From positions 49,453-113,452 of IMG/VR virus record IMGVR_UViG_3300011113_000396: a DNA stretch of 64,000 nt; one strand, written 5' to 3'. The notes beneath the pieces are model-generated. The model was not told the origin of the DNA, made no database searches, and saw only the letters and a list, made by a program, of their open reading frames with translations. The position numbers and the translations under genes are program-made. The stretch is from a virus. Positions 11,986 through 31,626 of this stretch are shown here, piece by piece. Position 1 is the stretch's first letter, and each line of letters opens with the position of its first letter.

Positions 11986-11992
11986 GAGACTT

Positions 11993-12873: not shown

Positions 12874-12877
12874 GTAA

Positions 12878-14193: not shown

Positions 14194-14217
14194 ATAATTT
14201 GGTATTATGGAGTTTTT

Positions 14218-14622
14218 ATGGATAATAATGACATATTTGATGGTTTAGGTGTTGAAGTAACATTAAAAGATAAAGACGCATTCTTGAAGGTCCGAGAGAC
14301 CCTAACAAGAATCGGCGTTTCTTCCAATCCAAACAAAAAGCTATATCAATCTTGCCATATCTTGCACAAGAAGGGCAGATATGCTATAATGCATTTTAAA
14401 GAATTATTTGTTTTAGACGGATTGGATAGTGATATGGACGAAACCGACTTGGCAAGAAGAAATACTATTGTAAAGCTTCTTGTCGAATGGGGTTTAGTCG
14501 ATCCAGTAGATGAGAATAGATATAAGGGGCCTCAGCTTCCGCTGAACAAGCTCAAGATCATTCCCTTTAAGGAGAAGGGTGATTGGAATCTAGTTCCTAA
14601 GTACCATATTGGAAAGAAATAA
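14218..14622 (+). CDS. regA: Translational repressor RegA
   Basis: FLKVRETLTRIGV, LYQSCHILHKKGRY.IMHFKELF, W.LVPKY.IG. Confidence 0.97.
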   Translation: MDNNDIFDGLGVEVTLKDKDAFLKVRETLTRIGVSSNPNKKLYQSCHILHKKGRYAIMHFKELFVLDGLDSDMDETDLARRNTIVKLLVEWGLVDPVDENRYKGPQLPLNKLKIIPFKEKGDWNLVPKYHIGKK

Positions 14623-14912
14623 TGAATATTGTTAATGATTATGATTTGTATGATAAAGCAAGAAATATGCTTTATGAAGGTCTTGCTAAGTACGATATCA
14701 AAAAACCAATCTTCATTTATGTTGACAATGAAATTGGCGATGCAGTCTTTAATATAAAAAAAAATAAACAGAATTTTGAATTAGCTATTATTCTTAGTAA
14801 TGAAGCTGTAAGTTTTGCTAAAGAAAATCTAATTGAAATTTTTAATAGATTTGATATGATTATTACCGATGATCCAGTAATAAGTGAATATTCATTCTTT
14901 AGTAAAAAATAA
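14622..14912 (+). CDS. Hypothetical protein
   Basis: Coupled to regA (TAATG); first gene of the AT-rich island. Confidence 0.55.
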   Translation: MNIVNDYDLYDKARNMLYEGLAKYDIKKPIFIYVDNEIGDAVFNIKKNKQNFELAIILSNEAVSFAKENLIEIFNRFDMIITDDPVISEYSFFSKK

Positions 14913-14918
14913 TTTATT

Positions 14919-15533
14919 ATGATACCAAAAATTATACACCAAATATGGTTGGGGGATCAATCAAAACGTCCTTCCAACCTTATAGAAACATGGAAAAGTA
15001 AAAATCCATCATGGCAACATAAATTGTGGACCGATGATAATTTACCCACATTGATATGCAAAAAACAATTTGAAGAATGTCCTTCGCTTCCCGGAAAAGC
15101 TGATATTTTAAGATATCAACTTCTTTACCAGCAAGGTGGGTTTTTTATTGATGCAGATTCTGAATGTATTAATTCTTTAGATGATTGTTTATTGAATAAT
15201 CATTGTTTTTGTTGCTGGGAAAACGAAACAGTCCGTAAAGGGCTTATGGCAAATGGATATTTAGCAGCAGAACGAGAGTGCGAATTGATGAAATTGATTA
15301 TGAATAAGATTGATTCATATCCACATATGAATTATCCTCCTCTAGCCACATGGGAAATAACGGGACCTTTATTACTAACTAATACAGCTTATCTCAATAA
15401 GTATCCAATCACAGTGTATCCTAGTTGGTATTTTATACCAAGACATTACACTGGATTGGAATATAAGGGTGATGGTAAAATATACGCAAAACAATATTGG
15501 GGAACCACTCCAAACAGTGGTTATGATTATTAA
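14919..15533 (+). CDS. Glycosyltransferase, GT32/Och1-like (DxD)
   Basis: IPKIIHQIWLG, ADILRY.LLY..GGFFIDAD, TGP. Confidence 0.9.
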   Translation: MIPKIIHQIWLGDQSKRPSNLIETWKSKNPSWQHKLWTDDNLPTLICKKQFEECPSLPGKADILRYQLLYQQGGFFIDADSECINSLDDCLLNNHCFCCWENETVRKGLMANGYLAAERECELMKLIMNKIDSYPHMNYPPLATWEITGPLLLTNTAYLNKYPITVYPSWYFIPRHYTGLEYKGDGKIYAKQYWGTTPNSGYDY

Positions 15534-16288
15534 TGGAAACCGTATCTATAGTTTTAAATTCATATCGAAGAACCAGATGGTTTATGGAACAATACCAAGC
15601 GATCAAAAATCAATCTGTTCCTATAAATGAAATCTATGTGTGGCAAAATAAATCTGATTCCGAGCCAATAGACGCATCATATAAAAACGATGTAATATTT
15701 GCAGACTGCAATCAAAATTTAGGTGTTTGGGCAAGATTTGCATTAGCTTTAAATTGTAGATCAGATTACATTGCAATTTTTGACGATGACACAATTCCCG
15801 GATCAAAATGGATAGAGAATTGCTTGAACACACACAAAACTCATCCCGGATTGCTTGGTACTGTTGGTGTTATATTTGGTGACAAGTATTATACTTGGAA
15901 CAAAGTGGAGCGTCTAGGTTGGTGTAACTCAAACGAAACAGTGAAACAAGTTGATATAGTAGGTCATTGTTGGTTTTTTCATAGAGATCTTCTTTCTGTT
16001 TTTTGGAGAGAACTTCCGAGCAAAAATCAAATACCAATTGTTGGCGAGGATATTCATTTTGCTAAAATGATACAAAAATATACTAATCAAGGGGTGTATG
16101 TTCCCCCCCATCCAACAAATGACAAGGAAATGTGGGGTAGTATAAAGGGAGAATCTTATGGACATAGTCAAGAGGCTATATCCATGAATTTGTATCAAGT
16201 TGGAAATATGAAACTTGCTGGTGGGCAGATGATGGCTATGGAACTTTCAAAAGCCGTTGATAATGGATTTAAATTACTAAGAGCATAA
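15533..16288 (+). CDS. GT-A fold glycosyltransferase (GT2-like)
   Basis: IVLNSYRR, ARF, IAIFDDDTIPG, GEDIHF. Confidence 0.8.
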   Translation: METVSIVLNSYRRTRWFMEQYQAIKNQSVPINEIYVWQNKSDSEPIDASYKNDVIFADCNQNLGVWARFALALNCRSDYIAIFDDDTIPGSKWIENCLNTHKTHPGLLGTVGVIFGDKYYTWNKVERLGWCNSNETVKQVDIVGHCWFFHRDLLSVFWRELPSKNQIPIVGEDIHFAKMIQKYTNQGVYVPPHPTNDKEMWGSIKGESYGHSQEAISMNLYQVGNMKLAGGQMMAMELSKAVDNGFKLLRA

Positions 16289-16289
16289 G

Positions 16290-17285
16290 ATGATATCAAT
16301 TTTTTATGGAACAAGACCAGAATATATAAAACTGTATAAACTTTATACAGAAATGAAAAATAAAAATTTTAATTGTGAACTAGTAAAAGTAAATCAACAC
16401 ACTACATTAATTGAAGATTGTTTTTCCGATAGATCAGTAGATATTTTAACTACTGATAATAATAGACTGAATTCAATTATCCAACAAGCTTTAAATAGTA
16501 AATTGTTTGGCTCAGATACAACACATGTAATTGTTCAGGGAGATACTGCAACTAGTTTTGGAATAGCTTTAAATGCATTTCATAATAAAATAAAAATAAT
16601 ACACATAGAAGCTGGCTTGAGAACTTGGGATAAAGAAAATCCATATCCAGAAGAAACATATAGAAAATGCATTTCTAGTATGGCTGATGTGCATTTTTGT
16701 GTTTCAACATTAAATAAAGAATGTTTACAAAACGAAAGAGTAAACGGTAAATTATATGTTGTCGGAAATACTGTTTTGGATAATTTAGATAATGAAAATA
16801 TTTATTATGGAAATATTATTCCTATAACTCTTCATAGAAGAGAGAATAAAGATAGAATTGAAAAAGTATTAAGGGCAATAGATAATGCAGCTTTAAATTT
16901 CAATCATTTAAACTTTGTATATCTAAAACATCCATCTGTAAACATTAATAATGAATTTAAAAATATCTTTGTTATGCCACCACAAACCTATTCAAGCATG
17001 ATAAATATGTTAAAACAATCAAGGTTTGTTATAACTGATAGTGGTGGAATTCAAGAAGAAGCATCTTTCTTTAAAAAAAGAACAATAGTTGTAAGAAAAG
17101 AAACAGAAAGAAAAGAGGGTCTTGGGGTATTTTCTGTTTTGGCTTTTGAGCCAATTAGTATAATAGAATCTATTAGAGAGTTTGATGAACATTATGAAAT
17201 AAATGAACCTTGTCCATATGGCGATGGCAAAGCTGTTGAAAAAATTGTTACAGTGTTGGAGCAATATATAAATGAAATTATTTAA
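16290..17285 (+). CDS. wecB: UDP-N-acetylglucosamine 2-epimerase
   Basis: GTRPE.IK, VQGDT, HIEAGLR, PEE, TLHRREN, TDSGGIQEEA, PYGDG. Confidence 0.95.
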   Translation: MISIFYGTRPEYIKLYKLYTEMKNKNFNCELVKVNQHTTLIEDCFSDRSVDILTTDNNRLNSIIQQALNSKLFGSDTTHVIVQGDTATSFGIALNAFHNKIKIIHIEAGLRTWDKENPYPEETYRKCISSMADVHFCVSTLNKECLQNERVNGKLYVVGNTVLDNLDNENIYYGNIIPITLHRRENKDRIEKVLRAIDNAALNFNHLNFVYLKHPSVNINNEFKNIFVMPPQTYSSMINMLKQSRFVITDSGGIQEEASFFKKRTIVVRKETERKEGLGVFSVLAFEPISIIESIREFDEHYEINEPCPYGDGKAVEKIVTVLEQYINEII

Positions 17286-17967
17286 AACTGAAATTGAAAA
17301 GTTATTTACACGATTAATTTCAAGAAAACCTTTTGCATTTAGCAAATATGCAGATGGTGAATGGATGGCAATGAATCAATTTCCGGTGTTTAATGGGGAA
17401 TTTAAATCGGATTCATCGGAAAAAACCTTAAACTCAATTAAACTTTTAAAAGAATCATTTGTTTATAGAGATCCTAATTATATTGTAGGAATCAGCTGTC
17501 CATGCTGCCAAGGCCAAGCACATGAACACATGAAAAAAGTTTCTGGTCAAGATGAAGAAAATCTTACATATGCAAATATATTTGTAAATTCAAATTATCA
17601 ATATTATAAAGATAACTTTATCCCAGAGTATAAAAATTGGAATGTAAATTTAGTAGCAAATGAAAATTCTAATATAGAAAAATTACCTTTTAATATAAAA
17701 AGGTTTTATCCAATCAAAGTTAATGCTTGGGTAGAAAATCTTGATTTAATTGAAACATTAAAAGAACTTAATACCCATGATGAATTGTATTTATTCGCCG
17801 CAGGACCTTTTGGCAATATATTGACATATAAAATGTGGCAACATAATAAAAATAATACTTATATGGATATTGGTTCTACATTAAATCCTTGGCTTGGCTT
17901 TGAAGGATTTAAACGTGGTTACTTATACGGATCAGAAGATTTAAGCAAAGTTTGTATTTGGGGTTAA
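17272..17967 (+). CDS. Probable GT-D fold (DUF1792-like) glycosyltransferase
   Basis: FSKYADGE and AAGP...YMDIGS echo the RFGDGE and LGP...IDIG motifs of GT-D. Confidence 0.55.
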   Translation: MKLFKTEIEKLFTRLISRKPFAFSKYADGEWMAMNQFPVFNGEFKSDSSEKTLNSIKLLKESFVYRDPNYIVGISCPCCQGQAHEHMKKVSGQDEENLTYANIFVNSNYQYYKDNFIPEYKNWNVNLVANENSNIEKLPFNIKRFYPIKVNAWVENLDLIETLKELNTHDELYLFAAGPFGNILTYKMWQHNKNNTYMDIGSTLNPWLGFEGFKRGYLYGSEDLSKVCIWG

Positions 17968-17985
17968 ATATAAAATTAATTTATT

Positions 17986-18708
17986 ATGAATAATATTACA
18001 TTATTTACATATACACATACTAACTGTAAAGATTTGTGGCCAATATATTTTGATTTATTGGATAAACACGCTCCTTCATTTGACAGTATTGTGGCATCAA
18101 ATCAAGTTTTTAATAGCTATAAAAATCATAAATTTGTAGAATATAAAGATGAAAATTATTGCCAAGAAATTGCAAACATTGTTGAAAACAACATACAAAC
18201 AGAATATATGATTTATATGCAAGAAGATTTTTTCTTGTATGATAATATTAATACCGAAGAATTAAAATACATCACTGATTTTTTGGATGAAAATATAGTT
18301 TCGTGTGTTCGATTAATTAAATGTGGTCAAGTGACAGAAATTCCAATCAAAGAAAAAATTTATTGGATTCAAGAACCAAATACACTACACGATTCAGTAA
18401 CATCAGTATCTTTCCAACCAACTATTTGGAAAACCAAGGATTACGTTGAACTTTATAGAAATACTGCTTACACTAAATTCCAAGAAGGAATTGAGTTTGC
18501 AAAAACCATGAATAAACTTAATTATCGTGCGGCATATTACTATAACAAAGAACCCAAAAGAGGTGGTATGCATTGGGATTCTTCCATATTTCCATACATA
18601 GCAACCGCTGTTGTCAAAGGAAAATGGAATTTCAGAGAATATACATCTGAACTTGATTTAATATTAAATCAATATAAAATAGATGCTGATGTCAGGGGCA
18701 AATGTTAA
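17986..18708 (+). CDS. Probable glycosyltransferase (GT-A like)
   Basis: YMIYMQEDFFL, SFQPTIW, A.VKGKW; island context. Confidence 0.6.
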   Translation: MNNITLFTYTHTNCKDLWPIYFDLLDKHAPSFDSIVASNQVFNSYKNHKFVEYKDENYCQEIANIVENNIQTEYMIYMQEDFFLYDNINTEELKYITDFLDENIVSCVRLIKCGQVTEIPIKEKIYWIQEPNTLHDSVTSVSFQPTIWKTKDYVELYRNTAYTKFQEGIEFAKTMNKLNYRAAYYYNKEPKRGGMHWDSSIFPYIATAVVKGKWNFREYTSELDLILNQYKIDADVRGKC

Positions 18709-19508
18709 TGAATGCTGCAATTGTTTACTTAACACGACGACAAGATATAAGTTTTCTTGTTAAAAGTTTAAATTTACTCAATGTTTTTTTTATAGACAAA
18801 TTTCAATACCCAGTTATTATTTTAGAAGACGATTTAAATAATGTGGATAAAGAGCAAATAAAATTATGTTTAAATAATTTAAAAATTAAAAATTTTATTC
18901 AATTTGAAAAGATTTCATTTAGTTTACCAGAATCTTTGTCTTTGGATTCAAATCGATATAATCCACCATTAGATGGTTTTAAGATGGGATACCGAAGCAT
19001 GTGTCAGTTTTTTTCTGGAGAAATATTTAATTGTAAATTTTTAGAAAAATATGATTGGATTTGGAGATTGGATTCTGATTCTTATATATTGAAACCTATA
19101 AACTACGATCCTTTTGCATATATGAAGGAAAATAACAAAGTTTATGCTTACATATCAGAATATATGAAAGATCAACCTTATGTAGTTGAAGGTCTTTTTG
19201 AAACGACAAAGCAGTTTATTGATCAAAATAAAATTAAACCTAATTTAATTTTACAACAATCATTAATAAATGGTTGGAATTGTGAAATGTTTTACACAAA
19301 TTTTGAAATTATGAATATTAAATTTATGAAAGAATCTGGATATATTGACTATTATGAATTTTTAAATTCAACAAATAATATTTTTTATAAAAGATGGGGC
19401 GATGCTCCAATTCGCTGGCTCGGTGTAAATATGTTTGCACAAGAAAATGACATATATTGCATAAAAGACATATCATATCAACACCAACATTGGATTAAAA
19501 ACACATGA
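18702..19508 (+). CDS. Alpha-1,2-mannosyltransferase, GT15 (Kre2/Mnt1-like)
   Basis: GYRSMCQFFSG, YDWIWRLDSD, FYTNFEI, FYKRWGDAP, Y.H motifs. Confidence 0.85.
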   Translation: MLMNAAIVYLTRRQDISFLVKSLNLLNVFFIDKFQYPVIILEDDLNNVDKEQIKLCLNNLKIKNFIQFEKISFSLPESLSLDSNRYNPPLDGFKMGYRSMCQFFSGEIFNCKFLEKYDWIWRLDSDSYILKPINYDPFAYMKENNKVYAYISEYMKDQPYVVEGLFETTKQFIDQNKIKPNLILQQSLINGWNCEMFYTNFEIMNIKFMKESGYIDYYEFLNSTNNIFYKRWGDAPIRWLGVNMFAQENDIYCIKDISYQHQHWIKNT

Positions 19509-20410
19509 GTTGTGTAGTTTTATGCCAGCTCGGATCAAAATGCTTTGATCCAAAATTGCAAAAATATTACGATCCTTGGGCATCACACATATGGAATGTT
19601 GCTCATCAAATAAGAAAATGGGATACTAATATTCCATTTTATTTTATAGTCGATGAACAAATTAAAAATATTTCAAACTATGAAAATTTTAATCTACTAA
19701 AAATTAATCCAGTCGAAACAAAAGATCTAGATCTGGAATTTGATCTACAAAATTTAAATTATTTTCAGTCTCATCATGATCCATTGTGGAAAAATTCTTT
19801 ACATAGATTTTTTTACATAAATTCTTTATTAAAAAATAAAAAGCTCGAAAACTGCATTACATTTGATAATGATGTTTTAGTTTATAACAATCTTACAGAG
19901 TTAAGCAATAAATTTAATGTTTTATACAAAAATTCATGTATAACACCAGTAATGTCGAATGAACTAGTATGTGGATTTTTTTGGATAAAAAATTCAAATG
20001 TTTTAAGTCGAATTAATGAAGGTTTAATTCATTATGCTAAAAATCCATTTGATCATCATCCAACCGAAATGAAAATGCTGTATATGATACAGCAATCAAA
20101 TCCAAATTTAATTGAAAATCTTCCAATTTGGCCGGATGGGAACAATTCTGAACATGCGGATTTAATTGGGGGTATCTTTGATCCATGCACGATTAGTCAA
20201 TTTCTAGCAGGCTGCAATAATGGACAACCACCCGGTACAATTCTAATGCATCATCTTCTAGGTTCGGAATTACAAAAACATAAGTACACCATACGAGAGA
20301 CAATTACAGATAATAAAAAAATATTTTACCTTATGGACAAAGAAGGTATTATGACTCGTATAAATAACTTGCATATGCACAAAAAAAGTGCTATAAAAAA
20401 CTATATTTAA
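19505..20410 (+). CDS. Probable glycosyltransferase
   Basis: RFFYI, FDNDVLVY (DxD), EM, IFDP..I.QFL.G, NLHMH.K. Confidence 0.6.
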   Translation: MSCVVLCQLGSKCFDPKLQKYYDPWASHIWNVAHQIRKWDTNIPFYFIVDEQIKNISNYENFNLLKINPVETKDLDLEFDLQNLNYFQSHHDPLWKNSLHRFFYINSLLKNKKLENCITFDNDVLVYNNLTELSNKFNVLYKNSCITPVMSNELVCGFFWIKNSNVLSRINEGLIHYAKNPFDHHPTEMKMLYMIQQSNPNLIENLPIWPDGNNSEHADLIGGIFDPCTISQFLAGCNNGQPPGTILMHHLLGSELQKHKYTIRETITDNKKIFYLMDKEGIMTRINNLHMHKKSAIKNYI

Positions 20411-20412
20411 AA

Positions 20413-21174
20413 ATGAATTCTATATGTATCACAACTTTTTGTAATAAAAATTTCTTAAGTAGAACCGAAGAAACAATTCGGCAATTGAGAACAAATGGAA
20501 AATATTCGGGAACTATTGTCTTATTGGTGGGAGATGATCTAAAATATTATAAAAATAATGATTCTAATTTAATAGTAAAATATTTTCCAACAATCGACAG
20601 ATCTAAAGTATTACAACAACTTAATGGCGTTTCAACTTCTGATGGGAGAGATTTAAACAAACCTTTTCAATGGCATAAAATTTATACCTTCCATGATTAT
20701 TTTCGCCAATGGAATAGCTGCATGTTGATTGATGGTGGAATGAAAATATACAACCCAATACAAAAAATGCTGGATTTAGATTGTAGAAATACTTTTTTGG
20801 CTCACTGCGATGGCTATCCAACATATGAGTGGAAATTATCAGGACAATTTGAATCAGAGCGATTTAAACATCTTTATAAAGAATTGTCTTCTTTGTACGA
20901 TTTAAACATAGATTATTTTCAAACAGGAATGTATTTATTTGATACTTCTCTAATAGAAGATCAGACAATAAATCGGCTGTTGGAATTGGGAAACCGTTAC
21001 ATTAATACTAGAACAAATGAACAGGCAATAATGAATTTGTTATTTAATTGTGAAAAACAAGTATGGAAACAGATTCAAATAAAAGATGACCAATTGCATT
21101 ATTATGATTGTATGGAACGAAATGGGTTAAACTGTAAAAATTACATAATGTTGAAGATGCCACAGACTTTATAA
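20413..21174 (+). CDS. Glycosyltransferase, GT8-like
   Basis: QWHK..F, LIDGG, YFQTG.YLFD, NEQAIMNL. Confidence 0.7.
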   Translation: MNSICITTFCNKNFLSRTEETIRQLRTNGKYSGTIVLLVGDDLKYYKNNDSNLIVKYFPTIDRSKVLQQLNGVSTSDGRDLNKPFQWHKIYTFHDYFRQWNSCMLIDGGMKIYNPIQKMLDLDCRNTFLAHCDGYPTYEWKLSGQFESERFKHLYKELSSLYDLNIDYFQTGMYLFDTSLIEDQTINRLLELGNRYINTRTNEQAIMNLLFNCEKQVWKQIQIKDDQLHYYDCMERNGLNCKNYIMLKMPQTL

Positions 21175-21175
21175 T

Positions 21176-21943
21176 ATGAATTACATTCAAGGTGAAAAAT
21201 TTATTTGTTTGGCTGATGGAATACAGATTCATTACCAAGACACAGAAAATGTAGATCGTTTTTTTGAAAATGAGGCACCAAACTATCCATTCATTTTAAT
21301 AAGTCATAATGGAGATGGTGCAGTCCGGATGGAACGAGACTCGGCTTATGATGCAAGTTTGTCTAAAGCACCACCAACTTTAATAAAGTGGTTTGCGCAA
21401 AATGTTTGCGTAAGAGATTCCAGAATGCAATCTATTCCAATAGGATTGGAAAATTCTAAATGGTTTCCAGAATTACAAAAGATAGAAAAATTAAAACAAA
21501 TAATCAAAAATAATAAATGCAGATACAATAAAATTTATTGCAATTTTAATATCGAAACAAATCCAACAGAAAGAATAAAAGCACATGCAATCGCATCTAA
21601 TCTTTCTTATTGCACGACGAATTTAGGAAAAAATGGATTTGGTTATAATGAATATGTTTCAAACTTATATCATCATGATTTTGTATTGTGTCCTGCTGGT
21701 AATGGAGAGGACACACATAGGTTATGGGAAACTCTTTATATTGGATCTATTCCTATTGTAAAGAGATCCATAAATACAATGTATTACACAGACTTGCCTA
21801 TTTGTTATGTCGATGATTGGGAAGAAATCAAGAATGAAAAATTTTTAAATGACGAATATGAAAGAATTTTAGATAATAATTCTTGGAATATGGATAAATT
21901 AAATTTTAATTATTGGTCTAATTTTATACTTAAGGCGAAATAA
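21176..21943 (+). CDS. Exostosin (GT47)-like glycosyltransferase
   Basis: IPIGLEN, FVLCPAGNGEDTHRLWETLY.GSIPIV. Confidence 0.8.
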   Translation: MNYIQGEKFICLADGIQIHYQDTENVDRFFENEAPNYPFILISHNGDGAVRMERDSAYDASLSKAPPTLIKWFAQNVCVRDSRMQSIPIGLENSKWFPELQKIEKLKQIIKNNKCRYNKIYCNFNIETNPTERIKAHAIASNLSYCTTNLGKNGFGYNEYVSNLYHHDFVLCPAGNGEDTHRLWETLYIGSIPIVKRSINTMYYTDLPICYVDDWEEIKNEKFLNDEYERILDNNSWNMDKLNFNYWSNFILKAK

Positions 21944-22046
21944 ATGCTTAATAATGAGGAAATAGAAGAAATTTTTAATAAATTTGTTAAAATAAATTAT
22001 ACTCATGAGTACGACACACGATATCACAAATAAAAAAGGTCTAAAA

Positions 22047-22676
22047 ATGAAAAGAACTGAACAATTAGTAAATATATTAGAAGATTCCGATAAAAATTAT
22101 TTATTTTCTAAATTACCTGAATCTATTTTTAAAATTCAAGGCATGTCTGGAAAATATTTTAAAAATGTTTTAAACAATATTTTATCTAACACCTTTATTA
22201 AAGAATATCTTGAAATAGGCGTATGGAAAGGTTCAACCTGTGTTGCAGGATTGTATGAAAATCAAAATAGATTAAATTACCATATTATTGATAATTTTTG
22301 TTCTTTCGGTGGACCAAAAGAAGAATTTGAAAAAAATTTTCAAACATTTTTGAATAAACCGTCAAATATAATTGATGCAGATTGTTTTTCAATTAAACCA
22401 AGTGAGCATGGAATAAAAAATATAGATGTGTATTTTTTTGATGGTCCACATGAAAAAATAGATCAATATAATGCTCTCAAATATTATTATGAATATTTAA
22501 ACGAATCATTTATTTTTATTGTAGATGATTGGAATTGGGAAATGGTTAGACAAGGCACATGGGATGCTATTAAAGATTTAAATTTAAATGTTCATAAAAA
22601 TATAGAACATTTTACCGAAACACAGGATTCAAATACTTGGTGGAACGGGTGCAGTTTTTTTGTTTTGGAAAAATAA
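22047..22676 (+). CDS. Class I SAM methyltransferase (Methyltransf_24-like)
   Basis: YLEIGVWKGST, YFFDGPH, FIVDDWNW, WWNG; probable start 22047. Confidence 0.85.
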   Translation: MKRTEQLVNILEDSDKNYLFSKLPESIFKIQGMSGKYFKNVLNNILSNTFIKEYLEIGVWKGSTCVAGLYENQNRLNYHIIDNFCSFGGPKEEFEKNFQTFLNKPSNIIDADCFSIKPSEHGIKNIDVYFFDGPHEKIDQYNALKYYYEYLNESFIFIVDDWNWEMVRQGTWDAIKDLNLNVHKNIEHFTETQDSNTWWNGCSFFVLEK

Positions 22677-22678
22677 AC

Positions 22679-23350
22679 ATGAACTTAGATATTTCAAATA
22701 TTTTTATTTATATTATTCATTATAAAGGCGCAGTTGACAGAAAAACATATTTATCTGAATGGTTAGATCGCAACAGCTTAAAAGCAACATGGATGACAGA
22801 TCCAGATCGTAACGATCTTACACAAGAAGTAATATCGCAATATTATAATCAACATTGTACAAAAGAATGGTCTGATTATCCTCATCTCAATAGATCTTTG
22901 ACCAAAGGCGAAATAGCATGTTCCATTGCCCACTTGAATGTTTATAAGGATGCAATAGAAAAAAATTATTCTAATATATTAGTTTTAGAAGATGACTGTA
23001 CATTCGTACCAAATTTTATTTTAAAGTTTAATAAATTGATGGAAAAAATTCCAGATGATTATGACGTTATCTCTTTAGGATCATGTTGTAATTTAAAACA
23101 CGAAAAAGCCCATCTAGTAACAGAACCAACTTTATTTAAAAAAATACCGCCAGTTGGCAGATGTGCTTTTTCAAACCTTTTAAGTTTAAAAGGTTGTAAA
23201 AAAATCGTTGAAAGATGCATTCCATTTAGTTATCCAATGGATTGGCAAGCATTTGTGATAGCATCACAACATAATGAAGATCCGTTCAATTTTTATTGGG
23301 TAGAACCACCTATAACGATAGATGGTCAAAGTCCAACCACAGTAGGATAA
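22679..23350 (+). CDS. Glycosyltransferase family 25
   Basis: IYIIH...R, LTKGEIACSIAH, ILVLEDD, D.ISLG. Confidence 0.88.
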   Translation: MNLDISNIFIYIIHYKGAVDRKTYLSEWLDRNSLKATWMTDPDRNDLTQEVISQYYNQHCTKEWSDYPHLNRSLTKGEIACSIAHLNVYKDAIEKNYSNILVLEDDCTFVPNFILKFNKLMEKIPDDYDVISLGSCCNLKHEKAHLVTEPTLFKKIPPVGRCAFSNLLSLKGCKKIVERCIPFSYPMDWQAFVIASQHNEDPFNFYWVEPPITIDGQSPTTVG

Positions 23351-23352
23351 AT

Positions 23353-23940
23353 ATGAACCAAAATTACTTAACTAATTTAATCGAAGATTGTTTATATGGC
23401 AAAACTGATATAAGCCAACATAGGCTGTTCTTATTTTCATTGGTGTGTGCAATGAAACCAAAAAAAATATTAGAACTTGGCGTCAGGGGTGGCCACTCAA
23501 CGAGTGCGTTGTTATATGCATGTGACCTCATTGATTCGCAGCTAACATCGGTCGATATATCAGACCACCATTTTAGTTGTCCCGAGGAATTGAAGCATAG
23601 GTGGTGGTTTACAAAAAGTGATGCAATAAAATTTTTAGAAACAACTTCCGAAACATATGATATGATTTTTATAGATGATTGGCACGCCGAGGAACACGTT
23701 TACAAAGAATTGACTTTACTAAAAGATAAAGTAAAGCCAAATAATCTTATATTACTTCATGATCTCATGCATAGTTTTTCCCATCCAAACTATACAACAC
23801 AGGTTTATCCGTCAGGGCATGAATTTGAGGGATTAGGTCCCTATGGTGGCGTTCTTAAATTTGTTAAAGAAAATGTAAATTTTGAGTTTGCCACCGTACC
23901 CACTAATCACGGAATGACCATTTTGAGAAAAACAATATGA
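23353..23940 (+). CDS. Class I SAM methyltransferase (Methyltransf_24-like)
   Basis: ILELGVRGGHST, DMIFIDDWH, ILLHD. Confidence 0.85.
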   Translation: MNQNYLTNLIEDCLYGKTDISQHRLFLFSLVCAMKPKKILELGVRGGHSTSALLYACDLIDSQLTSVDISDHHFSCPEELKHRWWFTKSDAIKFLETTSETYDMIFIDDWHAEEHVYKELTLLKDKVKPNNLILLHDLMHSFSHPNYTTQVYPSGHEFEGLGPYGGVLKFVKENVNFEFATVPTNHGMTILRKTI

Positions 23941-24764
23941 GACATTTAATATTAGGTTCAAGTGGACAGATAGGCTCACATTTAGTTCCTTATTTAAAAA
24001 CTAAAAACATTCAATCTATTGAATTTGACCTTGTCAACTCACCGTATCAAGATCTTAGAATAAATAATAATACTTTTCTTGAAAAATGTATAGATGAATC
24101 GGATTTTGTATATTTTTTGGCTTTTGATGTTGGTGGCTCACGATATCTCAAAACCTATCAAAATAGCTATTCTTTTATAGAAAATAATACAAAGTTGATG
24201 GACCAAACATTTGGGTTATTGAAAAAATACAATAAGCCGTTTCTATTTACTTCCTCACAAATGTCAAATATGGACTATTCACCATACGGAACATTAAAAC
24301 GATTGGGTGAATACTATACAAATTCTTTAAATGGTTTAGTTGTTAAATTTTGGAATGTATATGGGATTGAACATGACGAAAATAAATCTCATGTGATAAC
24401 TGATTTTATTAAAAAAGCATTAAAAAATAAAAAAATAGACATGCTTACTGATGGTTCGGAGGAAAGACAATTTTTATACGCTGATGATTGCTCTGAGTGT
24501 CTTTTGACTTTGTCTCAAAAGCTTAATATTTTGGATAGAACAAAAGAATATCACATTACAAATTTTAAATGGTCAAAAGTTATTGATGTGGCTAAAATTA
24601 TTCAAAAAAATATCGATTGCGATATTGTACCAGCAACAACAAAAGACTCAATTCAATTGAATAAAAAAAATGAACCGGATACACACATATTGCAATATTG
24701 GAAACCAAGAACCACGTTAGAAGAAGGTATAAATAAAATGTGTTTTTATTATAAGAAATTGTGA
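23937..24764 (+). CDS. NAD-dependent nucleotide-sugar epimerase/dehydratase
   Basis: GSSGQIG, YGTLK (YxxxK), NVYG, RQFLYADD. Confidence 0.9.
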   Translation: MRHLILGSSGQIGSHLVPYLKTKNIQSIEFDLVNSPYQDLRINNNTFLEKCIDESDFVYFLAFDVGGSRYLKTYQNSYSFIENNTKLMDQTFGLLKKYNKPFLFTSSQMSNMDYSPYGTLKRLGEYYTNSLNGLVVKFWNVYGIEHDENKSHVITDFIKKALKNKKIDMLTDGSEERQFLYADDCSECLLTLSQKLNILDRTKEYHITNFKWSKVIDVAKIIQKNIDCDIVPATTKDSIQLNKKNEPDTHILQYWKPRTTLEEGINKMCFYYKKL

Positions 24765-24776
24765 AAGGAATAAAAA

Positions 24777-25754
24777 ATGAAAAAAGCTCTTGTGCTGGGT
24801 GCTGGTGGATTTATCGGAGGTCATTTAGTAACTCGTCTAAAGAATGAAGGCTATTGGGTTCGTGGCGTTGATATAAAAGAACACGAATACAAAAAAACAG
24901 ATGCGGATGAGTTTTTTGTATTGGATCTGAGGATTCAAGAAAATGTTGCAAAATCACTTGCACTCACAAGTAATTCTGGATTTGATGAAATATATCAGTT
25001 AGCCGCAGATATGGGTGGTGCTGGTTACATTTTTACCGGTGATCACGATGCAGATGTTATGCACAATTCAGCGTTGATTAATTTGCACGTTACACAGGAA
25101 GCAATAAAATATGCTAAACTACCTAAAGTATTCTATTCATCTTCAGCATGCATGTATCCAGAATACAATCAACTAGATCCAGATAATCCAAAATGCTCAG
25201 AGGATTCTGCATACCCTGCTGCCCCCGATAGTGAATATGGCTGGGAAAAATTATTCAGCGAACGGTTATATTTGGCATATAATCGAAATTATGGTCTTCC
25301 TGTTCGTATTGGTCGTTTTCACAATATTTTTGGTCCATATGGATCATGGAATAATGGTAAGGAAAAAGCTCCAGCCGCAATATGCAGAAAAGTTGCTTTT
25401 TCTGAAAATGGTACAATAGAAATTTGGGGCGATGGAAAGCAAACAAGATCGTTTTTATATATCGATGATTGTGTAGAAATAGTAAGACGATTTATGGAAT
25501 CAGATTTTAATGGTCCTATGAATATAGGTTCAGAAGAAATGATATCTATAAATGGTTTAGCTGAATTAGTAATGCATTTGGCAAATAAAAAATTAATAAT
25601 CAAAAATATTTCTGGCCCTCAAGGAGTGCGTGGAAGAAATTCAGACAACAAATTGATGCGCGATAAACTTAATTGGGAACCAAATCAACCATTATCCATC
25701 GGTTTAAAGAAAACTTATGACTGGATTTATAGCTTAAAAACTTGTCAATATTAA
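24777..25754 (+). CDS. GDP-mannose 3,5-epimerase-like protein
   Basis: GAGGFIG, QLAADMGGAG, YSSSACMYPE, YGWEK, RFHNIFGP.G.W..GKEKAPAA.CRK, GVRGRNSDN. Confidence 0.9.
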   Translation: MKKALVLGAGGFIGGHLVTRLKNEGYWVRGVDIKEHEYKKTDADEFFVLDLRIQENVAKSLALTSNSGFDEIYQLAADMGGAGYIFTGDHDADVMHNSALINLHVTQEAIKYAKLPKVFYSSSACMYPEYNQLDPDNPKCSEDSAYPAAPDSEYGWEKLFSERLYLAYNRNYGLPVRIGRFHNIFGPYGSWNNGKEKAPAAICRKVAFSENGTIEIWGDGKQTRSFLYIDDCVEIVRRFMESDFNGPMNIGSEEMISINGLAELVMHLANKKLIIKNISGPQGVRGRNSDNKLMRDKLNWEPNQPLSIGLKKTYDWIYSLKTCQY

Positions 25755-25769
25755 ATTAATTGGTATAAT
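25742..25769 (+). promoter_or_regulatory. Sigma70-type promoter (leaderless) for GT2-TPR
   Basis: TTGTCA-N16-TATAAT, 6 nt before ATG 25776. Confidence 0.7.
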
Positions 25770-25775
25770 AAAATT

Positions 25776-27005
25776 ATGAACCCTACAATAACATTATGCA
25801 TGATCGTTAAAAATGAATCCGCAGTGATTCTCCAGTGCCTTGAATCGATGTACAAGTATGTTGATCGATACGACATCACGGATACTGGTTCTACTGACGG
25901 AACCCAAGACATTATCCGCAAGTTCTTTGCAGAAAAGGGAATCCCCGGTGAGATCTACCAGTCAGATTGGAAGGGATTCGGTGACCATGCTGGCCGCATT
26001 GGTTCTAGAACCGAGGCTTTCCGAAACTGCGACGGCAAGGCTGACTATGTTTGGGTAATTGATGCAGATGATTATCTTGAAGGCGATTTCAAGTATCCCC
26101 CAAACATGAATGCTGCGGCCTATGCTCTTACATTTAAGAGAGATGATTTCACTTGGTGGAGAACTCAGATCTTCAAGAATGAACTTCTTTGGAGATATGT
26201 TGGTGTTCTTCATGAATATCCAGATACTGATAAGAAGCCATATGCTGTTGAAAAGATTCATGGCAATTATCATGTCACAGCCAGAACTGCTGGATTCGAA
26301 AGAAACGCAAACAAAACACTTGTTGAAAAGTATTCCAAGGATGCAGAAACCCTTGTCAAGGCTCTGGAAGAAGATCCAACGAATGTTCGATATATGTTCT
26401 ATCTTGGACAAAGCTATTTTGATTCGCAGCAATGGGGAAAGGCTGAAGATGCTTACCTAAAGCGTTCCAAGATGGGTGATTGGGGTGAAGAAGTATTCTT
26501 TTCTCTTTACCGAGCGGCAATCTGCAAGATTCTACAAGCAAAGGCATGGCCAGAAATTTATGATGCCTTCCTTAACGCTTACGAATCACGCCCAACAAGA
26601 GCAGAACCATTATATCAACTCGCTAGGCTAAATCGCCTACATAATAGACCAAGAACAGGATTTATCTATGCACAAATGGCAGCACAAATTCCATACCCTC
26701 AAGAAGACCTTCTTTTCGTTGATCACGGTATTTACAAGTGGGGTATTTTGGACGAAATTTCGTCAACTGCTTGGTATGCGGGTAAGCCCCACATCGGCTT
26801 TGAAGCCAGCCGCGTGCTGCTGCAAGAGAAAAGGTTGCCGCAAGACCAAACAGACAGAGTCACGAAGAACTTCTTAACTTATAAGGATCTGCTAGAAAAA
26901 CTCCACACTCAGCAGCAGATGAATGTGGAAGCAGAAAAGGAGAAGGCAAAGCAACAAAAGAAACAGCAGAAAAAGATGAAAAGGATGCAAAAGTTAAGAA
27001 GGTGA
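25776..27005 (+). CDS. GT2 glycosyltransferase with TPR repeats (protein O-glycosyltransferase-like)
   Basis: [29 protein letters not shown]; TPR helices ([23 protein letters not shown]). Confidence 0.9.
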
Positions 27006-27006
27006 C

Positions 27007-28734
27007 ATGAAATTCTCAGATATCTTTAAAAAAGAACAAAAAATAAATCTTGCTGGCCTAACCAAGCAAGATGTTCTTTTATTAAAAGAAGATATTTCAG
27101 AATTTAAGACTGGTACTAAGTTTACTGTCAATCCCAAAAACAAGAGTGATAAGTCCGTAGAAATAGGCGATGGTCTTACCGAATTGCATCTAGTTGATGA
27201 AAAAGGTAAAACTGTCCTATTTTCGGGAAATTACTCAAAAATTGCGTCATTATTCACAATTTTAGAGGAAAAGACCCCCGAACCACAAATCATAGTTGTA
27301 GAAAAAACTATTGTCAATGAGATAAAAAAGAAACAAGTAATAGAAGGCAAAGAAGGTCCGATAGGGCCACAAGGCCCAAGAGGTGATATTGGAGCCAGAG
27401 GGGAACTAGGACCTGTTGGGGCTAAGGGAGAGCGCGGAGAACAGGGTGAGGTGGGCGAACAGGGTCCACAGGGCATTGCTGGCCCAATCGGGCCTAAAGG
27501 TCCAGTAGGACCGCAGGGGCCAAAGGGAGACAAGGGAGATAAAGGCGATCAGGGAGTTCCCGGAGAACGAGGTCCTATAGGCCCAGAAGGTCCAAAGGGA
27601 GATCGCGGAGAAGCTGGAGAGCCGGGACTTGATGGATTGCAGGGAGAACGAGGGCTAATTGGTCCGCAGGGTCCAAAGGGAGATATGGGAGAACCGGGTC
27701 TTCCCGGACCAAGAGGCCTAATGGGTCCACAAGGACCAAAGGGAGAGCGCGGAGAACCCGGAGAACAGGGTCCAGAAGGTCCTCAAGGTCCAATAGGACA
27801 AGACGGCCTTCCCGGTGAAAAGGGCGACAAGGGCGATCCCGGTGTCGTTTCTGCCAGTTTTCCATTAATCTACGACAAAAAATCGGCAAATCTAAGTTTT
27901 GACACTAAATTTTTGGACGATAAGATCACCAAGATAGCTGTAGATCCACTTTTGGCTAGCGGTGGCAGTGGTCTGGGTGTCAAAGAAAACGGATCAATAC
28001 TTGTCAAAACGGGTGTTGATTATTTGGATTTTAGAGGTTCTATTGATCTTACCAGACAAGGTAGAACTGTTATCGTTACAGGAACATCTTCAGGATCTGG
28101 TACTGGCATAACTGGCCCTACAGGTCCAACTGGTCCAGCGGGTGCAACTGGTGCTGACGGATCGATTGGTCCTGTGGGTCCGACTGGTGTTACGGGAGTT
28201 ACTGGTGCTGATGGTTCAATTGGCCCTATTGGTCCAACAGGTGCTACAGGCGTTACAGGAGCAGACGGTTCAATCGGCCCTATTGGTCCAACAGGTGCAA
28301 CTGGAGTTACTGGTCCTATTGGACCTACTGGAGCTACAGGACCATCTGGTATAACCAATATTAATGGTATTACTTTATCCCCTGTAACTATAAGAGATGG
28401 AACTGGAATTTTAATAGCAAATAATATTCCAAATAGAGAAATAAGTATTGAAAACGCTTGGGGAGAATTAGCAGATTCGAATTCAACCCTTGAACCGTAT
28501 ATTTTAGTTAGTTTAAATGGATTAATAGGTGCTCCATCATTATTTGCCGGAACAGGAATAACTCTCTCTGTCGGAACTCAAGGTATTACAATTTCATCCA
28601 CTTTACCCAAGTTCACGGAAGGGACAACTGCCCCAGCAAATCCAATTGCAGGAGATAGGTGGTACAATACAGACGATGGTGTGATATACACATCAGTTAC
28701 TAAATCAGGATCACAAATTTGGATAGTTGGATGA
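27007..28734 (+). CDS. Collagen-like virion fibre protein
   Basis: Two G-X-Y tracts (charged ~27346-27843; Thr-rich ~28105-28356); C-terminal APANP..GDRWYNT motif. Confidence 0.85.
28105..28356 (+). repeat. Degenerate 54-nt coding repeats ([18 protein letters not shown]) in G-x-T collagen tract
   Basis: About three copies with mostly synonymous differences, flanked by partial units. Confidence 0.8.
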
Positions 28735-28747
28735 GGATAAATAGAGT

Positions 28748-31303
28748 ATGCCGATAAATTTTCCCAATTCACCAAGCATTGGAGCTACCTACGACTACGA
28801 AGGTATTCATTATATTTACAATGGTATAGGCTGGGTCAACAAAAGCATTTTTGGTATTTCAGCTGGAACTAATATTAGCTTTACTAATTATAATGGCACT
28901 GGTCCTCTAATTATTTCAGCGATAGATACTACTGGTATAACCAGCGCAGTAACATCATTCAATGGTAAAACAGGTGCGGTTCAGGGAGTATCTAGTTTTG
29001 CTGGGCTAACAGGAACAGTTGGTTCTGGAATAACCACAAACGGAATTTTATATTTTGATGGTTCTGACGTTCAAGGATCAGCACTCCTGACATTTAATGG
29101 TTCTGATATAGTTCTTGATACATCTGGTCATTTTGATGGGAATATACTTGGTAGATCTGAAGTCTATATTAAAGCAGATGAAGCAATAAACGAAGGAGAT
29201 CCAGTTTATGTTACTGGTTCTGTTGGTGCGTCTGAGCGATTGACTGTTGCAAAAGCCGATTCAGCAATTTCTGCAAAAATGCCTGCTGCTGGTATAGCCG
29301 CTCAAAGTTTAGCTTCGAATGGTGAAGGAGTAATGATTATTAATGGCTGGGTCCGGAATTACGATACGACGGGGCTAACAGCAAATCAAATACTATTTGT
29401 TGCTTCTGGTGGTGGTTTGACCGCTACAAGACCAACATCTGCTGGAGTATTGGTTCAGAACATAGCAAGAGTTGGCAGACCAAACCACGCAAACGGCTCA
29501 ATCATTGTAACTGGAGCAAGTAGAGCAAATGATGTACCAAACACTATTCGCGTATATCAGTACATTGAGATGCCAGATGGATTTACGTTCAATACTGTTG
29601 TTTCTAGTTTCAATGGAAACACGGGAGCTGTTCAAGGAATATCAGCAGCTGTTGCGGGATCTGGTATCAGTGTTTCTGGTGCTACTGGATCTGTTACTAT
29701 TACCAATACTGGTGTCTTGAGTTTTAATGGTAATACTGGAGCAATCCAAGGTGTATCTTCCATCAATGGAGCAACTGGTGCAATTACAAGTGTTGCGTTT
29801 ACAAATGCAGCACAGACTTTTAGTGCTTTACAGAGTTTTAGTTCTGGTATTTCTGCTAGTAGTGGGATTACTTTTGGAAATAATTTAACAATTAAAACTG
29901 GATCAGGGGATTTAACGATTGGTTCTAATTCAGGACCATTAAATACTCTTGTAATTGGGAATGCATCGTTAGCATCAAATAATACTATAGCTAACTCTAT
30001 TATCATTGGCAAAAATGCAATGTCATCTTCTGGTGTAAATTCTGCTGATTCTTTTGCAATAGGTTTAGGAGCGTTGAATTCCAATGATGCTACTTCAAAT
30101 TTTGGTATTGGGGTAGCAGCAGGATATAGCACTACTTTAGGTGGTGAAAATTTCTTTATTGGAAATAATGCTGGTTATGATTGTGTTGAAGGTTCTGGAA
30201 ATGTCGCCATAGGTCCAGCAGTATTACAAAATATTAATAATGGAACAGAAAATACAGGTATTGGATATTCGTGTTTATTTAGTTCTGTTGACACTAATTT
30301 CAATACTGCTGTTGGATCTGCTTCTTTACAAAATACATCATCTGGATCCGAAAATACTGCTATCGGATATGCATCTTTAGCAACTAACCTTACAGGAGCA
30401 GGAAACGTAGCACTTGGATATAATGCTGGTTTATATAGAGGCACAGCATCATTATCAAGAACTACTGGTACTGGTGGAATTTATATTGGATATCAAGCAA
30501 GAGCATCAGCTAATGCAATGACCGATGAAATCGTCATCGGTAGAAATGCAGTTGGTCTTGGATCAAATACAGCAGTCATTGGTGCAACTGCACAATCATC
30601 TGCCACGATTTATGGAGTAATGAATCTTCCGGGTGGATTGAGTGCTTCTGGTGGAATTACTTTCAATAGTAACATACAAATCAATAATAAAGCAATTCTT
30701 GGATCTGCTGCTTTAGGAGCAGCAACTCCCGGTTGTATTGAATTTGATGGAAATGTGGTTTATGCAGGAACTACCGCTGGTAGAGGAGTTGTAAGTACTC
30801 AACAAATATCAGTAATGACTGCGGCTACTAAATCTTTATTAAATGCTACGGGAGATCAAAATATTTTTGATACTCCACAAGATGTAATAACATTGGCTGC
30901 AAATACGACATATCAGATTGAAGGTTATATTCTCCTTTCAACAGGTACAACTACCCTTAGACATTTATCTTTGAGATTTACTCAAGGTATTGTTGCTAAT
31001 CCTCCAACAATACATTTTGCGACAATAGGCGTTCCTACCACTAGTGGCGGAGCAGTAAGAGCACAAGACACAGCATTCTTCAACACTACCACTGGAGGAG
31101 TGATCACCCAAACTACTTTTAATACTAATAGCTACAATGTATTTATTAGAGGTTTAATAAAAACTGTAGATTCTGTTACTATAACACCACAAATAGCATT
31201 CAGTGCAGCACCGGGAGTCACAAATACTGTTAATTTCGGTACATATATTTCATTCATTCCGATTGGAAATGGATCGATGGCATCTGTAGGGCCTTGGGCA
31301 TAA
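28748..31303 (+). CDS. Tail fibre / receptor-binding protein
   Basis: MPINFPNSP start; repeated V.SFNG.TGAVQG; N.A.G..AL beta-roll (YadA-head-like) repeats; GATAAATA late box. Confidence 0.8.
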   Translation: MPINFPNSPSIGATYDYEGIHYIYNGIGWVNKSIFGISAGTNISFTNYNGTGPLIISAIDTTGITSAVTSFNGKTGAVQGVSSFAGLTGTVGSGITTNGILYFDGSDVQGSALLTFNGSDIVLDTSGHFDGNILGRSEVYIKADEAINEGDPVYVTGSVGASERLTVAKADSAISAKMPAAGIAAQSLASNGEGVMIINGWVRNYDTTGLTANQILFVASGGGLTATRPTSAGVLVQNIARVGRPNHANGSIIVTGASRANDVPNTIRVYQYIEMPDGFTFNTVVSSFNGNTGAVQGISAAVAGSGISVSGATGSVTITNTGVLSFNGNTGAIQGVSSINGATGAITSVAFTNAAQTFSALQSFSSGISASSGITFGNNLTIKTGSGDLTIGSNSGPLNTLVIGNASLASNNTIANSIIIGKNAMSSSGVNSADSFAIGLGALNSNDATSNFGIGVAAGYSTTLGGENFFIGNNAGYDCVEGSGNVAIGPAVLQNINNGTENTGIGYSCLFSSVDTNFNTAVGSASLQNTSSGSENTAIGYASLATNLTGAGNVALGYNAGLYRGTASLSRTTGTGGIYIGYQARASANAMTDEIVIGRNAVGLGSNTAVIGATAQSSATIYGVMNLPGGLSASGGITFNSNIQINNKAILGSAALGAATPGCIEFDGNVVYAGTTAGRGVVSTQQISVMTAATKSLLNATGDQNIFDTPQDVITLAANTTYQIEGYILLSTGTTTLRHLSLRFTQGIVANPPTIHFATIGVPTTSGGAVRAQDTAFFNTTTGGVITQTTFNTNSYNVFIRGLIKTVDSVTITPQIAFSAAPGVTNTVNFGTYISFIPIGNGSMASVGPWA

Positions 31304-31315
31304 TAGGAGATTAAT

Positions 31316-31615: not shown

Positions 31616-31626
31616 TAAATAATCAT

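Follow-up and report, generated by a model that had tools for sequence, protein, structure and literature searches.

What does a marine T4-like phage decorate with a long row of sugar-transferring enzymes, the last of which is encoded directly in front of a collagen gene? We addressed this question in a 64,000-nucleotide stretch of DNA, here called the window, that represents bases 49453-113452 of the 113-kb IMG/VR virus contig IMGVR_UViG_3300011113_000396 (CheckV completeness 62%). In T4, gene 43 comes right after regA. In the window, 17.4 kb of co-oriented genes (14622-32067) are located between regA and the dUTPase and gp43 genes, and we consider it rather likely that this island is a module for the glycosylation of virion fibres. 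Support for fibre glycosylation is comparative and structural rather than biochemical, and on these grounds we regard it as probable.

The module would work in three layers. In the first, soluble enzymes from a variable, AT-rich cassette (14622-25754) would remake host sugar nucleotides and then extend and methylate a glycan. In the second, a glycosyltransferase that combines a GT-A (GT2) domain with tetratricopeptide repeats (TPR), termed GT2-TPR below (25776-27005), would hold a protein chain in its TPR superhelix, much as proposed here by analogy to the Clostridioides difficile enzyme SgtA, and its DxD-bearing GT-A domain would put the first sugar onto Ser or Thr. The likeliest acceptor would be the collagen-like protein encoded directly after GT2-TPR, more precisely its G-x-T block. 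The third layer is the fibre set itself, in which a collagen-like fibre and a tail-fibre-like protein may both be docked on the tail by an adaptor resembling p132 and BppU. The phage could gain fibre protection or altered adhesion, with a glycan type that differs by strain.

The genes of the second and third layers and the two borders of the island are as follows.

14218 to 14622, plus strand: regA translation repressor, left island border (phrog_242, E 4e-51).
25776 to 27005, plus strand: GT2-TPR, a GT-A (GT2) plus TPR glycosyltransferase of protein-modifying type, proposed initiating enzyme (PF00535, 46 bits; TPR_17, 29 bits).
27007 to 28734, plus strand: collagen-like fibre protein of 575 aa, proposed acceptor (PF01391, E 8e-40, 135 bits, five stretches; PHROG tail-fibre families).
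28748 to 31303, plus strand: tail-fibre-like protein of 851 aa with 22% Ser+Thr and repeated SFNGxTGAxQG motifs (PHROG structural and tail-spike families).
31316 to 31615, plus strand: open reading frame (ORF) of 99 aa, no family match, homologues in three related loci.
31627 to 32067, plus strand: p132/BppU-N-like Ig-fold protein, proposed fibre-docking adaptor (AlphaFold2 model with a predicted local distance difference test score, pLDDT, of 93).
32258 to 32764, plus strand: dUTPase, right island border, followed by an HNH gene, a DUF1599-like ORF and the gp43 DNA polymerase gene (phrog_135, phrog_262).

A preliminary description of this DNA had drawn the island from 14622 to 28734 and placed it in a T4-like phage. 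The layout it gave matches the ORFs, and the true end lies further downstream at 32067, adding the 851-aa fibre-like protein, the 99-aa ORF and the fibre-docking protein. The T4-like setting is borne out by the flanks: sliding clamp, clamp loaders and regA occupy 12175-14622, and from 32258 onward we found dUTPase, HNH, gp43 DNA polymerase, UvsX, helicase and primase genes. The clamp loader shares only about 55% identity with its counterparts in cyanomyophages, pelagimyophage Mosig and Methylophilales phage Melnitz, which makes this a marine T4-like phage without a cultured close relative. A megablast search with the whole island returned no match in a collection of 50,697 phage records (the phage collection in what follows).

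We analyzed GT2-TPR by comparison with solved structures. Its N-terminus, including the DxD region, best matches the sequence of GmaR (E 3e-9), followed by SunS and ThuS. An AlphaFold2 model computed from 20 homologues (pLDDT 88.9) contains a GT-A domain (aa 1-170) and helical repeats (aa 182-350); Foldseek aligned it to SunS and ThuS with both domains covered (E 2e-14), and VIA gave Z 20.6 for SunS (268 residues aligned, root mean square deviation 3.5) and Z 19.8 for ThuS, compared to Z 15 for the best match to a GT-A domain alone. The DADD motif formed by D96-A97-D98-D99 is invariant in alignment A1, which holds 20 sequences of 50-64% identity. Fold and sequence thus support placing GT2-TPR with the peptide and protein glycosyltransferases. 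SunS and ThuS, the S-glycosyltransferases of glycocins, and GmaR, the flagellin O-GlcNAc transferase of Listeria, act on cytoplasmic peptides or proteins. GT2-TPR shares with them the two-domain architecture and a similar N-terminal sequence around the DxD region, but differs in having neither a glycocin precursor nearby nor a MogR-type partner, and in ending with a long basic helix. This Lys/Gln-rich C-terminal helix (aa 356-408, nucleotides 26841-27002) has a parallel in the 20-sequence family alignment, which likewise ends Lys-rich; possible roles are contact with the collagen trimer, nucleic-acid binding or oligomerization.

With SunS and ThuS as the best structural matches and the SunS family TIGR04195 as the best NCBIfam match, GT2-TPR might be taken for a glycocin-type enzyme, with S- or O-glycosylation of a small secreted peptide as its task. 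The TIGR04195 match, however, scores 31.4 bits where 350 are required and covers aa 2-100 only, placing GT2-TPR outside the SunS family proper. The ORF lists contain no precursor-peptide, transporter or immunity gene, and the conserved neighbors of the enzyme are virion proteins. A glycocin-type function is therefore extremely improbable. The GT2-TPR family is very large in marine metagenomes (5394 metagenomic proteins at E <= 1e-5). In the phage collection, by comparison, we found it only in the soil jumbo phage Tunturi_5 (at 37% identity), in four records of huge phages and as a few partial matches, with no cultured marine T4-like phage among them; in this respect the phage studied here differs from its cultured counterparts.

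We next considered the proposed acceptor. The GT2-TPR stop codon ends at 27005 and the collagen ATG starts at 27007, so that the 1-nt spacing reported in the preliminary description is correct, as is its count of about 28 G-x-T-rich triplets: we found 28 triplets at aa 367-450 of the collagen-like protein, 16 of which read G-x-T. A larger collagen block (aa 114-281) is built from 56 charged triplets with no Ser or Thr at all and with Lys in the Y position of 10. The C-terminal half of the protein had no tblastn match in the phage collection.

The closest known arrangement is found in C. difficile, where SgtA, a GT-A enzyme with four TPRs, is encoded immediately upstream of bclA3 and transfers beta-O-GlcNAc onto Thr residues of G-P-T repeats; SgtA adds the first sugar, and unidentified enzymes then elongate the glycan (PMC7157674). 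When compared by architecture and gene order, the phage locus repeats this pattern, with the gene for a soluble GT-A plus TPR enzyme directly upstream of, and co-oriented with, a G-x-T-rich collagen gene. It departs from it in several ways. The phage pair would act on a virion fibre instead of a spore-surface (exosporium) protein; the phage collagen has the large charged block devoid of Thr, unlike BclA3; and the phage enzyme is preceded by about 15 more sugar genes that vary between strains.

To place the pair in a wider context we collected 96 related loci in two IMG/VR scans; counts of neighbor homologues and motifs cover 80 related loci. The order of the module in these relatives is conserved: sugar genes, a short-chain dehydrogenase/reductase (SDR) gene, GT2-TPR, a protein of about 145 aa, fibre genes, dUTPase, the DUF1599-like ORF and gp43, with regA upstream of the module wherever the contig extends far enough. 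The preliminary description had suggested looking at whether GT2-TPR and G-x-T collagens occur together across phages. Counting ORFs with at least 10 triplets that start on the same strand within 3 kb of GT2-TPR, in loci with enough sequence, we found a collagen-like ORF downstream of the enzyme in 31 of 51 viral loci and upstream of it in none of 67. These collagens are highly diverse, and many have G-N-T, G-A-T or G-S-T repeats.

The family also meets collagens outside viruses. Full-length homologues with 38-41% identity are present in Streptomyces, mycobacteria, Polyangiaceae, Ottowia, Flagellimonas and other bacteria. We searched 80 such homologue loci for collagen-like ORFs of at least 15 triplets within 6 kb, excluding G-x-G repeats of the PGRS type and bearing in mind that high-G+C ORFs may be miscalled. 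Such an ORF was found in 26 of the 80, and in 24 of these 26 Thr fills at least 30% of the Y positions. Collagen-like genes are rare in bacterial genomes, so that 26 of 80 is probably far above expectation, as gauged from this general rarity rather than from a count on random loci. The Gly-rich ORFs near mycobacterial homologues, which had been candidates, turned out to be GTG/GAG repeats of the PGRS type and were dropped from the count. In the mycobacterial loci L101, L106, L108, L111 and L124, the GT2-TPR homologue lies 162-998 nt from large Gly-rich ORFs of this type on the opposite strand, with GTG, GAG and GAT repeats, which hints that the family may also pair with Gly-rich surface proteins other than collagens.

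A further case comes from a cultured phage. In Tunturi_5, the GT2-TPR homologue gp35 (37% identity) and gp29, a protein annotated as tail fibre that contains the Pfam families Collagen and CBM5_12, are encoded 3.7 kb apart. As the same pairing exists in a phage in culture, the idea can be tested at the bench. Between gp35 and gp29, at 9388-12806 of the Tunturi_5 locus, are four tandem paralogues of 281-285 aa without a Pfam family.

The timing of expression was assessed with TATAAATA, the T4 late-promoter consensus. In the 80 related loci it occurs 113 times on the plus strand, with 24 of these in the 250 nt preceding the GT2-TPR gene and 15 more at the 3' end of that gene, ahead of the next one, whereas every other 250-nt bin holds at most 5 and the minus strand 22 in total. 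Before the enzyme gene, the motif is typically followed by AAGGA and the ATG. This enrichment is seen only across the relatives; over the whole window there are 8 matches compared to 5.6 expected. Sigma-70-like sites are not enriched in the island either (105 found, 90 +/- 9 expected). The best plus-strand site of this kind in the island (25742-25769) consists of TTGTCA, 16 nt and a TG-extended TATAAT, and ends 6 nt before the GT2-TPR ATG; a transcript starting from it would be nearly leaderless. The preliminary description had proposed that GT2-TPR primes the adjacent collagen. Taken together, the fold class, the parallel to SgtA, the one-sided linkage to collagen genes, the G-x-T neighbors in bacteria and the late-promoter motifs in relatives argue for this proposal.

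The third member of the fibre set worth attention is the protein encoded at 31627-32067. Its model resembles tail-tip chains of T5 and DT57C (8hqz_Q with E 9e-7, 7qg9_L with E 1.5e-6; E values from 9e-7 to 1e-5, TM scores 0.55-0.63), which we take, from the PHROG name, to be the p132 collar protein that anchors the L-shaped fibres. In BFVD the model matches, among others, a BppU-N domain protein as well as minor tail and tail-fibre proteins at their N-termini, and the PHROG match is named 'L-shaped tail fiber protein assembly'. We therefore propose, on the strength of the model, that this adaptor docks the fibres of the module on the tail. For the neighboring 851-aa protein, matches were found to annotated tail fibres from two cyanophages (S-SM2, S-PRM1) and from pelagiphage HTVC111P.

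Upstream of this core is the sugar cassette, which has the following genes.

14622 to 14912, plus strand: ORF of 96 aa, first of the AT-rich cassette, no Pfam, PHROG or NCBIfam match (G+C fraction 0.24).
14919 to 15533, plus strand: GT32-type glycosyltransferase (Gly_transf_sug) with a DxD motif (PF04488, 41 bits, cut-off 23).
15533 to 16288, plus strand: GT2 glycosyltransferase (PF00535, 33 bits, cut-off 23.3).
16290 to 17285, plus strand: WecB-like non-hydrolysing UDP-GlcNAc 2-epimerase (PF02350, 206 bits; TIGR00236, 198 bits, slightly under the cut-off of 210).
17272 to 17967, plus strand: possible GT-D-fold protein, a weak match (PF08759, 18.5 bits, under the cut-off of 27).
17986 to 18708, plus strand: ORF of 240 aa, no match in Pfam, PHROGs, NCBIfam or PDB sequences.
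18702 to 19508, plus strand: homologue of GT15 (Kre2/Mnt1-type) alpha-1,2-mannosyltransferases, soluble short form (PF01793, 143 bits).
19505 to 20410, plus strand: 301-aa protein of a virus-only family with a probable glycosyltransferase-like fold (Atlas features 0.98 to unnamed viral clusters).
20413 to 21174, plus strand: probable GT8-like nucleotide-diphospho-sugar transferase (Atlas 0.98 to viral clusters named as glycosyltransferases; no Pfam match of its own).
21176 to 21943, plus strand: RXYLT1_C / GT47-like glycosyltransferase (PF24785, 34 bits, cut-off 27; PF03016 under cut-off).
22005 to 22676, plus strand: Methyltransf_24 (TylF-like) methyltransferase (PF13578, 28 bits, cut-off 26.3).
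22637 to 23350, plus strand: GT25 glycosyltransferase (PF01755, 68 bits); its true start is likely the ATG at 22679, the first Met of the ORF, 3 nt past the preceding stop.
23296 to 23940, plus strand: methyltransferase resembling Methyltransf_24 and CmcI/rhamnosyl O-methyltransferases (PF13578, 54 bits; PF04989, 27 bits); its true start is likely the ATG at 23353.
23937 to 24764, plus strand: SDR nucleotide-sugar epimerase/reductase, SDR1 (PF01370, 80 bits).
24777 to 25754, plus strand: SDR nucleotide-sugar epimerase/dehydratase, SDR2, conserved just upstream of GT2-TPR in relatives (PF01370, 140 bits).

Nine to ten glycosyltransferases had been claimed for the island. Six are supported by Pfam, namely the GT32-type, GT2, GT15, RXYLT1_C/GT47-like, GT25 and GT2-TPR proteins. 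The GT-D match is below threshold and the GT8-like and GT47-like assignments of 20413-21174 and 19505-20410 come from look-alikes only, so that the number is better given as six firm glycosyltransferases, with at most four weaker candidates besides. The claim of two methyltransferases and three nucleotide-sugar enzymes is borne out by Pfam, which finds two Methyltransf_24 proteins, the WecB-like epimerase and the two SDRs. The GT15 protein matches solved structures of yeast Ktr4 (E 3e-31) and Kre2 (E 1e-30) and has no match in the phage collection; it has 188 metagenomic relatives, a few of them in Nitrospinae and archaeal metagenome-assembled genomes. An Atlas structure search with the 301-aa protein at 19505-20410 gave a TM score of 0.80 to giant-virus GT47-domain proteins, which we treat as a lead only, and PF01501 occurs in 41% of the members of one Atlas cluster that resembles 20413-21174. 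The closest Atlas look-alikes of these two proteins are clusters consisting mainly of giant-virus (Nucleocytoviricota) proteins. Searches of PDB sequences with 17986-18708, 19505-20410 and 20413-21174 gave nothing usable.

Two families of the cassette are associated with protein glycans elsewhere, which speaks for the fibre reading: GT15 is the fungal O-mannan family, and GT25 includes the animal collagen galactosyltransferases. The presence of a GT25 enzyme and of the Lys-rich collagen block prompted us to consider a hydroxylysine route to collagen glycosylation; this candidate is unsupported, as no 2-oxoglutarate oxygenase of the prolyl 4-hydroxylase type (PF13640) is present in the contig.

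The cassette and the core behave differently between strains. G+C content is 24-36% in the cassette (up to 25754) compared to 43-45% in the GT2-TPR and collagen genes. Two sister contigs (L003 and L005) are 86% identical to the window at the DNA level from 25738, 38 nt ahead of the GT2-TPR ATG, and this identity extends across the GT2-TPR and collagen genes into the beginning of the fibre gene, while no DNA similarity was found upstream of 25738. The sigma-70-like site mentioned above coincides with the start of this similarity. In place of the genes seen here, the sister contigs carry a cassette with a PLOD-type collagen glycosyltransferase domain, an FkbM methyltransferase, a fusion of an SDR and a sugar C-methyltransferase, and further SDRs; in L005, the PLOD-type domain (E 9e-20) is encoded at 3743-4447 and the fusion protein (858 aa) at 4492-7065. 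Most cassette genes of the window have a homologue in only 0-5 of the 80 loci, the exceptions being SDR1 (16) and SDR2 (44). The sugar cassette is thus replaced between close relatives while the GT2-TPR/fibre core stays.

A number of observations weigh against fibre glycosylation as outlined above. Some of them concern the acceptor. One phage subclade, which includes loci with a 60-65% identical enzyme, has adjacent charged collagens with no or almost no G-x-T; often, another fibre gene carrying a short run of G-x-T comes after these low-Thr collagens. In about 20 of the 51 loci, no collagen gene lies within 3 kb, and many of those retain the enzyme and the adaptor alone. The most constant neighbor of GT2-TPR is not the collagen but the p132/BppU-like adaptor, with a homologue in 51 of the 80 loci that mostly starts 6-290 nt after GT2-TPR and is kept in loci without a fibre gene. 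In addition, the TATAAATA motif of the window is located at 24728-24735, 49 nt before the SDR2 gene and not directly upstream of GT2-TPR. Others concern the cassette: soluble glycosyltransferases also build lipid-linked O-antigen units; a host could supply flippase and polymerase, which makes their absence from the island weak evidence; and such clusters in marine myophages have been read as host lipopolysaccharide (LPS) or cell-wall genes (PMC7029224, PMC12801897).

The first group of observations would fit an enzyme whose acceptor is not the collagen but the adaptor, the Ser/Thr-rich tail-fibre-like protein (22% Ser+Thr) or another virion or host protein, the collagen being an interchangeable fibre. 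Constancy and position of the adaptor, collagen-less loci that keep only enzyme and adaptor, and collagens without G-x-T all speak for this possibility. The Gly/Ser/Thr-rich center of the adaptor is, however, modeled as ordered beta strands (pLDDT >90) and not as an exposed, flexible acceptor, and both the bacterial homologues and SgtA associate specifically with G-x-T collagen-like ORFs. We thus consider a different acceptor, above all the adaptor or the Ser/Thr-rich fibre protein, a real possibility but an improbable one.

The second group would fit a cassette that remodels the host envelope (O-antigen, capsule or another surface glycan), for example to block superinfection, with the fibre genes close by because both share a hypervariable slot. 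This corresponds to the published interpretation of the glycosyltransferase/sugar-epimerase clusters of pelagimyophages and cyanomyophages (PMC7029224, PMC12801897). Enzymes of the GT25, GT8-like, GT2 and WecB-like types are frequently encoded in LPS and O-antigen loci, and the genes that predominate in the upstream cassettes of relatives (SDR, aminotransferase, nucleotidyltransferase, methyltransferase) are likewise typical of O-antigen loci; among 150 upstream ORFs from 22 loci we counted 35 SDR epimerase/dehydratases, along with aminotransferases, nucleotidyltransferases, varied methyltransferases and GT11. Because soluble glycosyltransferases act on lipid-linked intermediates too, host-surface remodeling retains some probability for the cassette. 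The island itself lacks the membrane part of such a pathway. Pfam finds no initiating polyprenyl-phosphate transferase, flippase or ABC transporter, polymerase or ligase in it, and a scan of its 20 proteins for membrane helices detected no 19-residue stretch hydrophobic enough for one (highest Kyte-Doolittle mean 1.56), in agreement with the earlier remark that no flippase, Wzy or ligase is visible. Moreover, the sole conserved glycosyltransferase is of the protein- or peptide-modifying class, its linkage to virion genes is one-sided, late-promoter motifs accompany it in relatives, and its family adjoins collagen genes in bacteria. Envelope remodeling is thus an unlikely, though not negligible, account of the island.

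The enzymes could also act on phage DNA, hypermodifying it with glycans in the manner of the glucosylated hydroxymethylcytosine of T4 or with longer glycans on modified bases. Phage glycosyltransferases that decorate DNA are well known, as cited in PMC12619734, and an ORF in front of gp43 (33382-33705) has a weak DUF1599 match below the cut-off (21 bits). In the 113-kb contig we found no thymidylate-synthase-family hydroxymethylase (PF00303), and no Tet/JBP match (PF12851) in a search where the positive control gave no match either; at 62% completeness of the contig, the missing hydroxymethylase and Tet/JBP genes are no proof of absence. The conserved enzyme, on the other hand, combines a TPR protein-binding domain with a peptide-glycosyltransferase fold. 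We regard DNA as a highly improbable target.

If the fibres are the target, as we favor, the island can be set against other viruses that glycosylate their own particles. In mycobacteriophages, a few phage-encoded glycosyltransferases modify the C-termini of capsid and tail-tube subunits (Freeman et al. 2023, as cited in PMC12801897 and PMC12619734). The proposed system would likewise provide phage enzymes for the phage's own structural proteins, but its cassette is much larger and swappable, and it is linked to accessory fibres of collagen-like type in a T4-like phage. Mimivirus and its relatives encode sugar-nucleotide enzymes and glycosyltransferases for their surface fibrils, and also collagen-like proteins and collagen glycosyltransferases. 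The island resembles these giant viruses in its virus-encoded sugar pathway and collagen-like protein, and two of its proteins have their closest look-alikes there, yet giant viruses differ in their eukaryotic hosts and in virion architecture. We know of no GT-A plus TPR initiating enzyme in giant-virus fibril glycosylation. Finally, the island has the appearance of the 'LPS / cell-wall' clusters of cyanomyophages and pelagimyophages, hypervariable regions of marine T4-like phages that mix glycosyltransferases, sugar epimerases and fibre genes; the papers describing them assign these genes to host-surface change or DNA modification (PMC7029224; PMC12801897).

Our analysis thus supports a system of known kind, in which a GT-A plus TPR enzyme O-glycosylates collagen-like fibres of a surface, but in a new setting, a T4-like phage with a large, exchangeable sugar cassette. 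A full-text literature search found no paper that ties a TPR glycosyltransferase to collagen-like proteins in phages. If the assignment is correct, some of the most abundant large phages of the sea would build strain-specific, methylated glycans onto accessory fibres. The glycosyltransferase-rich islands of marine phages, now counted as host-surface or metabolic genes, would gain a new reading, and phage adsorption, stability and recognition would each depend in part on a variable layer of glycans. For the GT-A plus TPR family, in phages and bacteria alike, the acceptor could then be predicted to be G-x-T collagen repeats. More tentatively, and with somewhat less than even confidence, we suggest that many uncultured marine T4-like phages carry a fibre 'serotype locus', in which a priming glycosyltransferase and a docking protein are fixed while the sugar cassette and the collagen-like fibres are exchanged. 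Virion glycans would then vary by strain like bacterial O-antigens, and much of what is annotated as 'LPS genes' in ocean phages would represent virion glycosylation.

The borders of the island are shared with many relatives: regA is found upstream of GT2-TPR in 20 related loci, and downstream of it dUTPase is present in 37 and gp43 in 31 of the 80. The ORF at 33382-33705 (DUF1599, 'nucleotide modification associated domain 1') is conserved just before gp43 in 36 of the 80 loci. The HNH endonuclease gene at 32796-33389, located between dUTPase and this ORF, has a homologue in none of the 80 and thus looks like a recent mobile insertion.

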